A stretch of DNA of 64,000 nucleotides, from the IMG/VR virus record IMGVR_UViG_3300037851_000141, positions 192,001 through 256,000 of that record; one strand, 5' to 3'. Of this stretch, positions 3,038 to 49,122 are shown in pieces (the first letter of the stretch is position 1; each line of letters starts with the position of its first letter). The notes under the pieces are model-generated. The model was not told the origin of the DNA and ran no database searches. It was given only the letters and a program-made list of their open reading frames with translations. A program made the translations under genes and the position numbers. This stretch comes from a virus. Its lineage: Duplodnaviria > Caudoviricetes.

Positions 3038-3565
3038 ATGGTCCCTTTTCAACAACCTGATCAAAAACAGGCTATGATTAATGAACGAATCTCAGCCAGA
3101 GAAGTCTTATTAATCTCTTCAACCGGCGAGAAGCTTGGAATAATAAATACCAAGGAAGCACTACAAAAAGCAAAAAATGATGGTTTAGATTTGGTTCTTG
3201 TAGCCGAAACATCTAAGCCACCAGTTTGTAAAATAATGGATTATAACAAACTTATTTACGAACAAAAGAAACGCGAAAAGAAAAATGAATCACATGGTAA
3301 AGTCGAGATAAAAGAACTCCGTTTCGGCATCTGTATTCAAGACCATGATCTACAAATTAAGGCTAAACAAGCAAAAGAATTCTTGGAAAAGGGTTGGAGA
3401 GTCAAGTTATCAGTTCAATTCTCTGGTCGCGAAAAACAACATCCCGAATTAGGTATTGATGTCCTAAATCGTTTTATCAAGTTTGTTGGCGAAGATAAAT
3501 CAAAATTCGAGAACCAACCAAGACTTGAGGGACGATACATGAATACATACTTGCTCAAAAAATAA
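3038..3565 (+). CDS. infC: Translation initiation factor IF-3
   Basis: INERISAREVLLI, LDLVLVAETSKPPVCKIMDY, KELRFG..HDLQIKAKQAKEFLEKG..VKLSVQFSGRE, PRLEGRYM. Confidence 0.95.
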   Translation: MVPFQQPDQKQAMINERISAREVLLISSTGEKLGIINTKEALQKAKNDGLDLVLVAETSKPPVCKIMDYNKLIYEQKKREKKNESHGKVEIKELRFGICIQDHDLQIKAKQAKEFLEKGWRVKLSVQFSGREKQHPELGIDVLNRFIKFVGEDKSKFENQPRLEGRYMNTYLLKK

Positions 3566-5790: not shown

Positions 5791-5907
5791 GCTGGTTTAG
5801 CTCAGGGGTAGAGCAGTTGTTTTGCTGGAATATAGGAAAGCAAGACGGTTCGAGTCCGTCATTCTGGAATAAACAACAGGTCGGGGGTTCAAATCCCTCA
5901 ACCAGCA
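5791..5907 (+). tRNA. tRNA-Thr(UGU) with 45-nt insertion (5825-5869) inside the anticodon; no encoded CCA
   Basis: Acceptor GCTGGTT/AACCAGC+A, D-arm GCTC/GAGC, anticodon stem GTTGT/ACAAC, T-arm GGGGG-TTCAAAT-CCCTC. Removing the insert gives loop TT-TGT-AA. Confidence 0.85.
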
Positions 5908-6428: not shown

Positions 6429-6490
6429 AATCCGAATGCTGATAAGATTACATATCATTAAAAACCAATCTTATCAAATTTTGTCGGATT
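6429..6490 (+). ncRNA. Structured repeat element copy 1 (CGA-ATGC...TACAT...TTTTG-TCG scaffold)
   Basis: AATCCGA/TCGGATT outer stem, TGATAAGATT/AATCTTATCA inner stem. Confidence 0.65.
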
Positions 6491-6503
6491 TTATTTCTGA
6501 GTT

Positions 6504-6575
6504 AATACCGAATGCTTGTTGAGAGTACATTTCCTTGTAAGAAACCAACCCCTCTCAACCACTTTTGTCGGTATT
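6504..6575 (+). ncRNA. Structured repeat element copy 2
   Basis: AATACCGA/TCGGTATT, GTTGAGAG/CTCTCAAC; apical TTTC-CTTGTAA-GAAA hairpin. Confidence 0.65.
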
Positions 6576-6583
6576 TTTCTTTA

Positions 6584-6694
6584 TGAGGGTTCGAATTCAA
6601 GTTGCTGGTGGAATTCCCACGACCTACCTACCAGTAGTAAAGAGCTTGATAGTAGAATAGCTAAGCGCGGCCAGTCGTGACCTCAAAACTGGCG
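6584..6694 (+). ncRNA. Unassigned structured RNA candidate
   Basis: Manual stems TCAAGTT/AGCTTGA, GCTGGTGG/CTACCAGT, GCCAGT/ACTGGC; possible long-range TGAGG/CCTCA. Confidence 0.35.
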
Positions 6695-6698
6695 TTAC

Positions 6699-6776
6699 GC
6701 TCTCATCGTCTAGCCCGGTTAGGACATTTGGTTTTCATCCAAAAAACGTGGAGTTCAAATCTCCCTGAGAGTACCA
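6699..6776 (+). tRNA. tRNA-Glu(UUC)
   Basis: GCTCTCA/TGAGAGT, TTTGG-TTTTCAT-CCAAA, TTCAAAT T-loop, encoded ACCA. Confidence 0.9.
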
Positions 6777-6778
6777 AT

Positions 6779-6841
6779 GAAGCGAATGCAGATAAGATTA
6801 CATTCTGGAAAAAATAAAATCTTATCAAATTTTGTCGCTTC
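6779..6841 (+). ncRNA. Structured repeat element copy 3
   Basis: GAAGCGA/TCGCTTC, GATAAGATT/AATCTTATC. Confidence 0.65.
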
Positions 6842-6847
6842 TTATAT

Positions 6848-6953
6848 GCTGCGTTGACAGATCGGTTATGTGCTAGCCTTCCCGAGAAAAGGAGCCTAAA
6901 GCTTTAATTCTCGACCAAAGCTAGAAAGGCGGGTTCGATTCCCGCACGCGGCT
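6848..6953 (+). tRNA. tRNA-Gly(UCC) with 35-nt insertion (6883-6917) after the anticodon; no encoded CCA
   Basis: GCTGCGT/ACGCGGC+U73, anticodon stem CTAGC/GCTAG, GCGGG-TTCGATT-CCCGC. Removing the insert gives CT-TCC-AA. Confidence 0.85.
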
Positions 6954-7026
6954 TAGATAGTTTAGTGTGGTGTTTTTTGAGAAATAAGAACGATTGGCTG
7001 GTCGGAAGCTACCAAGAGTTAGTGAT

Positions 7027-8343
7027 TTAGTTATCAACTGTTATCACTTTGGTTGTTGGGTCAAGATGGACTCTAAGCTCATCTCCGTCCAGAGTATAGA
7101 AACCAGTTTCCTTCCAGTAGAAACCCTTCCTATTTAACTCTAACTTACGTAATTTGGGAGGTATGTCGGGTAAGGTCTGTTCGTGGTTGCACGACGCATT
7201 ATAGTCTGCGTCGTCAGAAAAGCCACAACCTCGACAGATGTAAATCTTACCCTTCCTATTACTCTTACGTACCAATCCGCAACAACTACACCGTTGACTT
7301 CTGTAAGTACAAGACTGTAAAGTGAAGTGGACCCCAGCCTCTTCACAGCGGCTACTTACTTTGTCTCTGATGAGTGTGTTTGTCCAGTGGGACATCTTAC
7401 GACTCGTTCTACGACCATAGTTTATGTTATTTATCTCTTCCAACTTTAGATGCTTGATGTTCATTAAGTTTAGTTGGTTGACTGACCAATTAATGAAGTT
7501 CTCACGGTGAGATTGGGCTTTAAGGAAGGCTCGACTTCCTTTACGTTTGGCACTCAATTTATCTATAATAGAATCTAATGAGTGTCCATGAGAGTCTGTC
7601 TTTGGTGTTGTTTGTCTGTCCGACAACGATATTATTGTCAATTTACCTTGGTCAGCACCAACATCAACACCTTTGGTCTTAGGTGGAACATCTTTTTCCC
7701 ACCGTAGATTTACGAAGTTGGTTCCGATGAGGAACGAGTTGAGCATCTTCCAATCAGCATATTTTGAGTTATGTTTGTGGAATCTTATAGGTAGTTTGAT
7801 ATGACCATATTCATCACCGATACATTTGAGTCTGAGGACTCCGTTGAAATATGATGTATTTTGGGTTGGTTCCCAATCTATACATTTGCTTGATAATTCT
7901 GGGTTGATATTACTAAGATCAGGCTTTAGAGCCTGGAATTTCTGTAGATTTTGATATAGTCTCTCATTATAAACTCCTTCATCACAGAGTTTATTGAATA
8001 CCCATAATCTTCGTCTACGGACTTCCGTAGTTGCTGATATACATCCAGCAACCTGAGTTACCAGAGAGGATAATGCTCGGGCTGATAGTGGAGTTTGAAT
8101 ACCAAACAATTTGTAATCTATGAAACTTGGAGTTTCAAGGTTATCATCTTTGATAGAGAACTGATGCTCTGTAGATACTCCAGTTTCTTTATTTGTAGTA
8201 GTCCACTTGTATCCATGTTCCCAAATAAGGTCAACTATGAGTTGCCCAACTCTACGATACTCGGCAATAAACTTGTTCAACTTGTCAAGTTTATTCTTAT
8301 TTGTATCTTTAAGAGAATGAGAAGTTGACCGTATAGTAGTCAT
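7027..8343 (-). CDS. tnpB: TnpB/Cas12f-like RNA-guided RuvC endonuclease
   Basis: VGADQG (RuvC I), KLEEIN (RuvC II), SQRCSCCG..YICRGCGFSDDADYNAS (Zn finger + RuvC III). Confidence 0.85.
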   Translation of the reverse strand: MTTIRSTSHSLKDTNKNKLDKLNKFIAEYRRVGQLIVDLIWEHGYKWTTTNKETGVSTEHQFSIKDDNLETPSFIDYKLFGIQTPLSARALSSLVTQVAGCISATTEVRRRRLWVFNKLCDEGVYNERLYQNLQKFQALKPDLSNINPELSSKCIDWEPTQNTSYFNGVLRLKCIGDEYGHIKLPIRFHKHNSKYADWKMLNSFLIGTNFVNLRWEKDVPPKTKGVDVGADQGKLTIISLSDRQTTPKTDSHGHSLDSIIDKLSAKRKGSRAFLKAQSHRENFINWSVNQLNLMNIKHLKLEEINNINYGRRTSRKMSHWTNTLIRDKVSSRCEEAGVHFTLQSCTYRSQRCSCCGLVRKSNRKGKIYICRGCGFSDDADYNASCNHEQTLPDIPPKLRKLELNRKGFYWKETGFYTLDGDELRVHLDPTTKVITVDN

Positions 8344-8519
8344 AGTTTGATAATTATGTCCTTGACATTAAGAGTAACATAGCGTATAAATTCAGAGGTA
8401 GAATGGAATCCAAATTTAACAGCATTTTGTTCGATAAGTTCTTTTTCATGTTTAGAGACACGGAATCCGTAGTTTATCTCTTTATCTTTAGGTTTTTTAG
8501 TTTGGGGTTTATTTGTCAT
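8340..8519 (-). CDS. Ribbon-helix-helix DNA-binding protein coupled to tnpB
   Basis: INYGFRVSKHEKELIEQNAVKFGFHSTSEFIRYVTL; AGAAAGGA RBS; ATGA overlap with tnpB start. Confidence 0.7.
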   Translation of the reverse strand: MTNKPQTKKPKDKEINYGFRVSKHEKELIEQNAVKFGFHSTSEFIRYVTLNVKDIIIKL

Positions 8520-8581
8520 TAGTAATCCTTTCTTACTTGTATTTATATATCTATTATACAATGTTTGCTAACTTTTTTCTC

Positions 8582-8609
8582 TTGATTTTATATTTGAGTT
8601 AGGTATAAT
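8582..8609 (+). promoter_or_regulatory. Sigma70-type promoter for tRNA-Val
   Basis: TTGATT, 16-nt spacer, TATAAT. Confidence 0.5.
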
Positions 8610-8678
8610 TTTATTTAGATGATAACAAACTTATACATTTCACATGAAATGACTTTAGACTATACTAAACTGTCGTAT

Positions 8679-8754
8679 GGGCGCTTCAGTATAATGGCTA
8701 GTACATCTGTTTTACACGCAGAAGATGGGGGTTCGATTCCCTCAGCGCCCACCA
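8679..8754 (+). tRNA. tRNA-Val(UAC)
   Basis: GGGCGCT/AGCGCCC, TCTGT-TTTACAC-GCAGA, TTCGATT, encoded ACCA. Confidence 0.92.
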
Positions 8755-8760
8755 AATAAA

Positions 8761-8795
8761 ATCCACTAAATCTTAACTGGTTTGGTGGATTTTTT
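8761..8795 (+). terminator. Intrinsic terminator after tRNA-Val
   Basis: ATCCACTAAA/TTTGGTGGAT stem followed by T-tract. Confidence 0.75.
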
Positions 8796-47236: not shown

Positions 47237-48448
47237 TTAGGTGTGAATAAGTGAGTATATTTTACCCGACTTATTTACAATGTCAAGATTACTGTTTCTT
47301 CCATCTGACTTGTTATTGATATTGCTATCAAATTCAGAGGTCTGATGTCCACAGTCGTTGATTTCCGCCAAGCCAGCGGTATATATATTTATTGCGGCAT
47401 TATAGTCTCGATTTAGTGTAAATCCACAAATCTCGCATTTATATGTTCGTTCTTCAACTGGCATCTCGGCTTTAACATGACCACAACTTGAACATGTCTT
47501 GGTTGATGGATACCATTTGTTTACCTTATGTAAGATATTGTCGTAAATATCTTTTTTATAAGATAGCTGTCGAATAACTTTCCCTATACAAGTATCGGTA
47601 GTAGATTTACCATACTTCTTCATCCATGATTTTACAGATAAATCCTCAATTATGATAGCTTGGTTTTCGCTACATAACTGAGTTGTTAACTTATGAGTAA
47701 AATCATGTCTGATATTAGATATGCGAAGATGTAGCTTCGCTACTTTGAGTCTTTGTTTATCTCTATTTTTACTTCCTTTTTGTCTACGACTTAGTTTACG
47801 TTGATACCGTGCTAACTTCGACAAATTGGACTTGAGTGGCATTGGCGAGTGAATCTCATTACCTTGGTTGTCGGTAACGAGAGTTGTCAAACCAAAGTCA
47901 ATTCCTATTTTATTATCAGAAATACGAGGTTTTTGATAACTTCCAACATCAACTGATATTGAAGCGTACCATTTGTCTGCTTTTCTTGAAATTACACAGG
48001 AGTTGATTTTACCTTCGAATCTCAACTTCTCTGTTATTCTTATTTTACCAATAAGAGGAAGTCTGATGTGAGTATCTGATATGCTAAACTTGTCATTTGA
48101 TATATAGAATGTGTCTCGATTTCCACGTTTCTTAAATTTAGGGTAATTTGTTATCTTATTGAAGAAACTTGAGAATGCTGCACCAAGATACGCAAATGCT
48201 TGTTGATTCGCATCTTTTGGACTCTCATATATCCATGGGAATTCAGCTTCTTTTATTTTATTGAATTCTTTTTTGATTAAGTTAGCATTCGGTTTGGGTA
48301 AGTTATTATCAGATTTCCAACTTTCATACATTTTAGTCCACTTACTTAGTCCCCAATTATAAGTAAATCTGGCACAACCACATGCTTTAGCAAGTTGATT
48401 TTGCTGTTCCTTATTTGGTTGGAGTTGTATCTTGTGGCTGAGTATCAT
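47237..48448 (-). CDS. tnpB: IS607 TnpB RNA-guided endonuclease
   Basis: HTH LAKACGCARFTYNW, GIDFG, IIEDL, STKTCSSCG..CEICG..RDYNAAIN. Confidence 0.93.
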   Translation of the reverse strand: MILSHKIQLQPNKEQQNQLAKACGCARFTYNWGLSKWTKMYESWKSDNNLPKPNANLIKKEFNKIKEAEFPWIYESPKDANQQAFAYLGAAFSSFFNKITNYPKFKKRGNRDTFYISNDKFSISDTHIRLPLIGKIRITEKLRFEGKINSCVISRKADKWYASISVDVGSYQKPRISDNKIGIDFGLTTLVTDNQGNEIHSPMPLKSNLSKLARYQRKLSRRQKGSKNRDKQRLKVAKLHLRISNIRHDFTHKLTTQLCSENQAIIIEDLSVKSWMKKYGKSTTDTCIGKVIRQLSYKKDIYDNILHKVNKWYPSTKTCSSCGHVKAEMPVEERTYKCEICGFTLNRDYNAAINIYTAGLAEINDCGHQTSEFDSNINNKSDGRNSNLDIVNKSGKIYSLIHT

Positions 48449-48513
48449 ATGAGTTCTTGTCTTATCTCACCTTGTATTTATATCAATAGAGTCATCTTTT
48501 TATAAACTTTTTT

Positions 48514-49122
48514 TCACTGTTGTTCACTTATCATTTTCTTTAGAGATTTTCGATAATTACGAAGCCCATACAATCTGGAACTAAAGCAATGGATAATAGT
48601 CATCAAATCTTGAACCATTTCTTGTTTTGGTGATAGCGCAGTATTGTCGAGAATTTCAATTTCGCAATTGTATTTTTGACATATGTTGTTTATCATGTCA
48701 AACCCAAATCTACACAATCGGTCTTTATGAGCTACAATAAGTTTAGAAACTTTACCTAACATGATATCAGATAATATTTTGTTGAATAATTTACGATTGA
48801 AATTTAGTCCACCGCCAATTTCATTTAGAAACTCTACATTTTTATAACCTCTATTGGAACAATATTCTGATAGTATTTGGTGTTGATTGTTTAGGTCTTG
48901 TTTTTGGTTATTTGATGACACTCTACAATATGTTATTATTTTTTTATTTTCTTCTTTTGGTGCTAGTCCTTTGAACTCAAGTATTTGATTTTCGGTGTAA
49001 TATCTTCGATTTGTTTGAGTTCTATATGCTTTTAAGGTTCCGAGTCGATCCCATCTTTGTAAACATTTAACTGTTCTATTTAGGAGATTGGCTGCTTCTG
49101 TTATAGTGTATGTTGTATCCAT
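48514..49122 (-). CDS. tnpA: IS607 serine transposase
   Basis: MerR HTH + YCRVSS, EIGGG, HKDRLCRFG, FSSRLYG. Confidence 0.95.
   Translation of the reverse strand: MDTTYTITEAANLLNRTVKCLQRWDRLGTLKAYRTQTNRRYYTENQILEFKGLAPKEENKKIITYCRVSSNNQKQDLNNQHQILSEYCSNRGYKNVEFLNEIGGGLNFNRKLFNKILSDIMLGKVSKLIVAHKDRLCRFGFDMINNICQKYNCEIEILDNTALSPKQEMVQDLMTIIHCFSSRLYGLRNYRKSLKKMISEQQ

Follow-up and report, generated by a model that had tools for sequence, protein, structure and literature searches.

Several described systems bear on the locus presented here. In the characterised IS607-family transposons the core dinucleotide is GG (PMC6188088), and both cutting and homing have been shown for the IS607 protein CboTnpB (PMC10690162). 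Repression of tnpB promoters by Arc/RHH proteins has also been shown, including in elements made up of arc and tnpB only (Moon et al. 2026, 10.64898/2026.09.24.754181).

The locus lies in a 64,000-nucleotide stretch of viral DNA, referred to here as the window, whose source record is a jumbo phage of 331,849 bp (92% complete). An earlier note on this DNA had described a TnpB cassette between two tRNA genes, bracketed by two complementary 16-mers; these (6956-6971 and 8659-8674) do pair over all 16 bp, with three G-U pairs, on the plus strand. Judged by its ends, its core and its relatives, the segment from 7016 to 8657 is a 1.64-kb non-autonomous derivative of the IS607 family.

Genome setting

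An ARAGORN scan finds two tRNA arrays in the phage record. The cassette sits in one of them, with the following neighbours, the second of which is directly followed on its 3' side by a terminator (8758-8793):

6848-6953, plus strand: tRNA-Gly(TCC) with a 35-nt insert after the anticodon, the upstream neighbour of the cassette (ARAGORN with intron)
8679-8754, plus strand: tRNA-Val(TAC), the downstream neighbour of the cassette

Like the 35-nt insert of tRNA-Gly, a 45-nt insert in tRNA-Thr (5791-5907) lies in the anticodon loop. A sister strain (SRR33452761), about 90% identical to the phage, keeps the tRNA-Thr insert and has at the same place a tRNA-Gly(TCC) of different sequence that is insert-free. 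Three hairpin repeats of 55-70 nt (CGAATG...TTTTGTCG) are found among tRNA-Met, tRNA-Glu and tRNA-Gly (6429-6841), two of the three being kept in the sister strain. An additional structured spacer ahead of tRNA-Glu (6573-6698) is near-identical in the sister strain (L162:730-856), with base changes that appear stem-preserving, and has no match in Rfam. The sister strain also encodes, between tRNA-Glu and tRNA-Gly, a 138-aa Cys-rich HNH-like ORF fronted by TATAAATA (L162:962-1404), which occupies the place of the window's third repeat and insert-bearing tRNA-Gly. Just upstream of the window's array (3038-3565) lies a phage-encoded translation initiation factor IF3 with both domains.

Ends, core and family of the element

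Element ends were called across about 150 related loci, on the right at TAACT[C/G] and on the left after GT[C/G]. Conservation among 84 distinct relatives stops 1 nt beyond TAACT[C/G], T being preferred at that next base, and near-identical copies at different sites diverge exactly at TAACT[C/G] and, on the left side, just before GT[C/G]T. In 37 of 45 loci the C/G base of the core is identical at the left and right ends, which is what recombination at a 2-bp core would produce. In the window the core is TC, at 7017-7016 and 8659-8658, and there is no target duplication; about 40% of the relatives have TG instead. The ends in the window are as follows:

7016-7025, minus strand: right end of the element, ...CTAACTC, with the 2-bp core TC at 7017-7016 (conservation and comparison of copies)
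8640-8657, minus strand: left end of the element, with a T-N3-5-TCATTT motif
8658-8661, minus strand: TAM and target core AGTC, ending in the common TC (agreement of the core across loci)

Cutting at the core rebuilds a perfect tRNA-Leu(TAG) in one relative (L004) and a perfect tRNA-Trp(CCA) in another (L008). Another RHH+TnpB cassette, L166, has a TG core and seemingly splits a tRNA-Ser(GCT)-like gene with an unusual T-loop (1655-1716 / 3312-3350); this resemblance was noted by eye, and ARAGORN makes no call on the rejoined form.

The right end had previously been placed at TCAA (6980-6977), a tetranucleotide that lies 36 nt outside the element. With a TAACT[C/G] end instead of TCAA and no Y1 transposase, the IS605 class was rejected: a profile search for the Y1 (HUH) transposase (PF01797) found none in the genome, and Pfam-annotated relatives carry Resolvase and no Y1. 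Nor are the 16-bp arms terminal inverted repeats: relatives are without such repeats, and the arms do not coincide with the element ends, of which one is 44 nt inward of the left arm and the other falls on the right arm's first base. A search for an IStron gave no Rfam group I intron match at the left end, and only 138 nt separate this end from the RHH gene. The IS607 serine recombinase TnpA is absent from the window copy and present in its closest relatives with the same ends, hence the assignment as a non-autonomous derivative rather than a complete IS607.

TnpB, the omegaRNA and its guide

The coding and guide-related features, all within or adjoining the right part of the element, are these:

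7027-8343, minus strand: tnpB, 438 aa, with RuvC residues D231/E302/D380, a C4 zinc finger and a PF07282 match
7021-7085, minus strand: predicted 3' portion of the scaffold of the omegaRNA, with a covarying hairpin (7085-7063) and an AU-rich terminal hairpin (7048-7021); it overlaps the 3' end of tnpB
6996-7015, minus strand: predicted omegaRNA guide, 20 nt past the right end (from the right end and a genome scan)

The tnpB gene looks as intact as the earlier note had judged it, with 438 codons and both the RuvC triad and the zinc finger in place. Residues D231, E302, D380, C352, C355, C370 and C373 are invariant in 35 homologues, and nucleotide differences in the gene fall mostly at third codon positions. 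The protein scores under all NCBIfam TnpB cut-offs, including IS607_TnpB, so that its activity is an extrapolation; its best PDB matches are Cas12f-like (E about 1e-13) and cover the C-terminal third.

Hairpin 7085-7063 lies in the last codons of tnpB and shows two-sided changes at five of its nine pairs, in up to 13 of 29 sequences. Such strong covariation at this place supports an omegaRNA scaffold there, for which no Rfam model matches. This scaffold ends at 7016 instead of 6977, and the guide formerly read from the TCAA end was therefore misplaced: the true end puts it at 7015-6996, with a probable length of 20 nt taken from known TnpB guides. The guide does lie in the interrupted RNA, as had been proposed, but in an inner hairpin and not in a stem arm. 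The idea that it hits the right arm in cis was rejected, the guide predicted from the true end excluding the arm and the genome scan finding no second TAM-flanked match. The TAM of this TnpB clade is predicted to be GTC or GTG, and GTC in the window; by analogy with characterised proteins, TnpB would cleave an empty site carrying it.

An interrupted 77-nt RNA

The sequences flanking the element can be rejoined across it:

6956-6971, plus strand: 5' arm of the closing stem of an interrupted 77-nt RNA (from sequence and fold; the first 12 nt also in the sister strain)
6972-7015, plus strand: inner part of the 77-nt RNA, with two hairpins, left of the insertion (from the fold of the rejoined site)
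8659-8674, plus strand: 3' arm of the 16-bp stem (from sequence; the last 7 nt also in the sister strain)

Joining 6956-7015 to 8658-8674 gives a 77-nt three-way junction in which the 16-bp stem closes two hairpins. The rejoined RNA folds at -26.2 kcal/mol (z -5.26) on the plus strand only, and the arm-arm duplex has an energy of -19.6 kcal/mol on the plus strand versus -8.4 on the minus strand. The earlier suggestion of an interrupted spacer hairpin holds as regards the stem, but what was interrupted is not a bare hairpin: it is an RNA of 77 nt with 45 inner nucleotides. Taken alone and searched for region-wide, the helix is marginal against chance, a 16-bp far helix with at most three G-U pairs arising somewhere in 5.7-9.0 kb (3.3 kb) in 4 of 40 shuffles. 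When the search is confined to the two flanks, whose limits the element ends set independently, none of 3000 shuffles gives a helix of more than 14 bp. The stem is best read as the leftover closing stem of a disrupted RNA. That RNA starts 2 nt past tRNA-Gly and ends 4 nt short of tRNA-Val, which is the spacing of a gene of the array, and tRNA processing would therefore release it; we infer that it is expressed.

The two contigs of the sister strain at this place break off inside the arms: one ends 12 nt into the left arm, the other covers the last 7 nt of the right arm, and the middle is unassembled. Its left arm has two changes, each giving a Watson-Crick pair where the window has G-U. The protein collection includes the sister's neighbouring proteins and, apart from the phage's own, no TnpB or RHH near 90% identity. 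This absence hints at an empty allele in the sister strain. No empty allele was seen: pattern scans found none in viral contigs, and their hits were unrelated chance matches only. Two candidates were discarded: L161, a chance match inside GC-rich coding sequence, and L167, which comes from a Bacteroidetes MAG and is unrelated. At the latter (L167:2421-2540) a 25-bp inverted repeat flanks 64 nt close to an IS30-like transposase, and 13 nt are shared with the arm by chance. Neither a neighbouring gene nor the spacer repeat, used as a query, led to related phages, and homologues of the 77-nt RNA are lacking in INPHARED, 37 phage records and the collected loci. The cassette exposes a small structured phage RNA covered by no library. 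A Ro60 gene (TROVE match, G000:189,835) lies about 9 kb from it.

The RHH gene and its promoters

The left part of the element holds a regulatory module:

8340-8519, minus strand: RHH gene, 59 aa, NikA-like, translationally coupled to tnpB (PF21983 above cut-off)
8540-8547, minus strand: T4-type late promoter TATAAATA ahead of RHH-tnpB (from the genome-wide placement of such sites)
8537-8561: AT-rich inverted repeat TTGTAT-N13-ATACAA over the late promoter, a candidate RHH operator in the light of 10.64898/2026.09.24.754181
8582-8609, plus strand: outward early-type promoter TTGATT-16-TATAAT toward tRNA-Val, which came with the RHH module

As the earlier note recognised, a coupled RHH gene stands in place of tnpA: it overlaps the start of tnpB by ATGA, and the cassette contains no tnpA. 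A ribosome-binding site, AAGGA, lies ahead of it at 8530-8526. Some 61% of the 80 TATAAATA sites in the genome are within 50 nt of a start codon, as against 1-19% for control 8-mers, a placement which indicates that the motif works as a late promoter in this phage; it is carried by five of six RHH cassettes versus 8/50 and 9/54. The outward promoter, rightly picked out before as feeding tRNA-Val, fits the phage's TTGA[CT][AT]-N16-TAnAAT class, of which the genome has 53 sites versus 5 with N17 and 3 with N18. Outward promoters are not general in this family of elements, the strict pattern being present at 2 of 51 left ends.

By analogy with Arc in IS605 elements, the RHH protein most likely represses the RHH-tnpB promoter. 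The combination put forward earlier, of RHH autoregulation with TnpB cutting of the empty allele in competing phages, is plausible and matches published behaviour (PMC10690162; 10.64898/2026.09.24.754181).

The phage has further RHH genes. A second RHH+TnpB cassette lies in its other tRNA array (L002:6117-7957, G000:181.1-183.0 kb); the TnpB, of 536 aa, is 28% identical to the window TnpB over 129 aa, and the RHH is closer to that of L008 than to that of the window. A third RHH homologue (G000:186,330-186,700, minus strand) stands behind TATAAATA; the 73-aa ORF to which it is coupled has a CPxHG motif and probably encodes a truncated endonuclease. Since the same RHH family precedes a second, unrelated TnpB and a putative endonuclease ORF, the module is portable.

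Relatives, module exchange and mobility

The closest TnpB relatives with DNA context, at about 61-69% identity, lie behind an RHH gene or an IS607 serine transposase. P0003, P0005 (68%), P0004 (66%) and P0007 (61%) all follow an IS607 transposase (NF033518 above cut-off), which likewise makes the window element a non-autonomous IS607 derivative. Among 158 loci tnpA_S is upstream in 72 and RHH in seven, L166 having been found after this count. The end motifs of the element in the window, left and right, recur in the autonomous L165. L008, with RHH, and L082, with TnpA, have both end motifs in common and are 84% identical in nucleotides over tnpB (88% in amino acids); they differ only in what lies between tnpB and the left end, where the RHH version brings the outward promoter with it. 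A quick, unrooted IQ-TREE tree was built from 51 rows, comprising relatives of at least 45.5% identity and every RHH row, without near-duplicates; RHH and TnpA versions are intermixed on it, with at least four label changes. By these comparisons, tnpA has been replaced by the late-promoter and RHH module several times.

Two RHH+TnpB copies that are 99.9% identical (L156 and L157) differ in their right flanks, and two copies without tnpA that are 98.6% identical (L056 and L096) differ in both flanks. In the latter pair (L056:2220-2500 and L096) tnpA has been replaced in another way, by an outward promoter and a 49-aa basic ORF unrelated to RHH. Every relative examined for the single site of a homing element occupies a different one. 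Two outcomes that the earlier note had named as speaking against its reading are seen: the omegaRNA scaffold has another end (7016), and transposase-less copies, RHH+TnpB ones included, are found at unrelated sites, so that arrival by TnpA acting in trans is likely; such copies still move, presumably with this help. No cognate TnpA was found in this genome (92% complete record): its only TnpA_S is that of an IS607 whose TnpB is distant and whose ends do not resemble those of the cassette. The source of a cognate helper would therefore be the host or another phage. The window also contains a complete IS607 (47,240-49,120; L003:1738-3623) with TnpA_S, a typical TnpB and TATAAATA in the tnpA-tnpB gap, and a fourth TnpB is located at G000:39.4 kb.

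RHH cassettes lie near tRNAs at five of six sites, against 9 of 100 for other members of the family (Fisher p 1e-4, kinship ignored), and a single TnpB subclade accounts for four of the five cases linked to tRNAs. This bias fits selection for homing into conserved RNA genes, in a small sample with four related cases; it is explained equally well if phage tRNAs are dispensable and insertions in them are tolerated. TnpB probably helps related elements, which recur in phage tRNA genes, to spread between co-infecting phages.

A model for the locus and its alternatives

At the level of sequence, comparison establishes the ends, core and family of the element, the split RNA, the recurrent exchange of tnpA for RHH and the occurrence of copies at many sites. 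We propose that an ancestral element carried the serine transposase TnpA_S and that tnpA gave way to a phage module in which an early promoter facing outward and the late promoter TATAAATA accompany the RHH gene. Insertion would have taken place at an AGTC site within the gene for the 77-nt structured RNA between tRNA-Gly and tRNA-Val, in antisense orientation relative to the tRNA operon and by recombination at the 2-bp (TC) core; the element either still had tnpA then or was helped by a cognate TnpA acting in trans. At a late stage of infection, RHH and TnpB would be made together with an omegaRNA that runs through ...AACUC into about 20 further nt (7015-6996), its guide corresponding to the 3' hairpin region of the interrupted RNA, and RHH would repress the promoter of TnpB and omegaRNA. 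The TAM adjoins the target only in an empty allele, whether an excised copy or a co-infecting sister phage, and the RNP would cut there; recombination repair of the cut from a filled genome would copy the cassette back, leading to its retention or spread. The outward promoter would limit the cost of insertion by re-supplying tRNA-Val. Cleavage, homing and repression are the inferred parts of this model. To the explanation as a whole, a non-autonomous IS607 element with an RHH module for tnpA, a split 77-nt RNA and TnpB homing, we give a probability of roughly 0.7.

Another reading, which we think unlikely, takes the cassette to be a dedicated RNA-guided homing endonuclease: the version with RHH and late promoter would no longer transpose. 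As with the free-standing HEGs of phages, its persistence would depend entirely on homing, with conserved genes for tRNAs and small RNAs in co-infecting phages as its targets. The proximity to tRNAs (5/6 versus 9/100), the splitting of tRNA-Leu, tRNA-Trp and probably tRNA-Ser by RHH cassettes, and the excess of TATAAATA in them (5/6 versus 8/50 and 9/54) agree with it, as does the occurrence of the RHH family, in the same genome, before another TnpB that is unrelated and before a putative fragment of an endonuclease; T4 SegB, cited in PMC13565253, is a protein precedent in a tRNA region. Yet both putative transposase-binding ends are retained intact, every RHH cassette is at a different site, and in L156/L157 one is found at two sites away from tRNAs. 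Autonomous members split tRNAs too (L029), and the tRNA-linked cases belong, four out of five, to one TnpB subclade.

The wobble-rich stem had also prompted the suggestion that the cassette loops out of the tRNA precursor, the stem re-forming across 1.7 kb so that the cassette is removed, or the RNA rebuilt, and the insertion is silent. Folding energy allows this and nothing supports it, and we regard it as very improbable. RNAfold gives the arms a pairing probability of about 1 in the 1725-nt segment, but ignores kinetics and the cost of a long loop; all three mismatches are G-U compatible on the plus strand, but three transitions that keep G-U pairing in one arm would arise by drift about one time in eight. 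Although the phage has odd tRNA inserts, there is no Rfam intron signature, and relatives in tRNA genes are without an equivalent device. Two terminator-like hairpins lie inside the cassette on the plus strand, tRNA-Val has its own promoter, and stem and element ends do not meet, with 45 nt of host RNA enclosed on the left. The least likely reading is that of an old, stranded insertion with no current role, the arms being an ordinary spacer or processing hairpin or partly chance. The 10% of region shuffles with a 16-bp far helix, the missing homologues of the 77-nt RNA in INPHARED, the 37 phage records and the collected loci, and the lack of a cognate TnpA in the genome would suit it. Against it, the catalytic residues, scaffold hairpin, both ends and promoters are all intact, the rejoined RNA (z -5.3) fills the gap between the tRNAs with spacers of 2 and 4 nt, and the arm changes in the sister strain keep pairing.

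Returning to the non-autonomous IS607 element with TnpB homing, one may tentatively extend the model, with far more doubt than belief, to the clade: phage IS607 elements with TC or TG cores would repeatedly become RNA-guided homing endonucleases through the RHH swap, here in a 77-nt phage RNA. Converted copies would persist mainly in conserved tRNA and small-RNA genes, since a guide taken from the flank would meet targets in other phages nowhere else. A series can be traced that begins with autonomous IS607 elements (L082, L165) and leads to TnpB cassettes that sit in tRNA arrays and are expressed late under a repressor (L008, L004 and the window); with it, a role of TnpB in homing between phages becomes directly testable.

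Comparison with known systems

The 77-nt RNA resembles the bacterial Y RNAs YrlA/YrlB (PMC4201824) in having a long stem that joins its 5' and 3' ends and in its place in a tRNA array near a Ro60 gene. Unlike them, it has neither GNCGAAN0-1G near the 5' end nor a T-arm, and a Y RNA identity was set aside for this reason. With free-standing phage homing endonucleases such as T4 SegB (PMC13565253 and its ref. 35), the cassette has in common a nuclease under a late promoter in a tRNA array and an expected inheritance bias in mixed infection. It differs from them in that its target is set by an RNA guide derived from the flank, that it has discrete transposon ends and that its family occupies many unrelated sites.

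Arc-containing IS605 elements (Moon et al. 2026, 10.64898/2026.09.24.754181) share with the window a small RHH gene beside tnpB, its product being a likely repressor, and a divergent promoter region. In the window, however, the backbone is of IS607 type, the RHH gene is co-oriented with tnpB, coupled to it and in place of tnpA, and the promoter is a phage late promoter.

Closest of all are IS607 elements themselves (H. pylori IS607, PMC6188088; the CboIStron with TnpA_S and TnpB, PMC10690162). The window element is like them in the absence of terminal inverted repeats and target duplication, in an identical 2-bp core at both junctions, in a scaffold ending in the last two bases of the TAM and in a right-end omegaRNA overlapping tnpB, and its relatives carry an NF033518 transposase. 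It is unlike them in its core, which is TC (TC or TG in relatives) and not GG, in the loss of tnpA from the window copy, in the lack of a group I intron and in a TnpB from a distant, largely phage-borne clade. For this clade, far from characterised ones, ends, core and predicted TAM (GTC or GTG) are now defined. What is new with respect to all of these systems is a TC-core non-autonomous IS607 derivative that has an RHH and late-promoter module for tnpA and is inserted in a small structured RNA.
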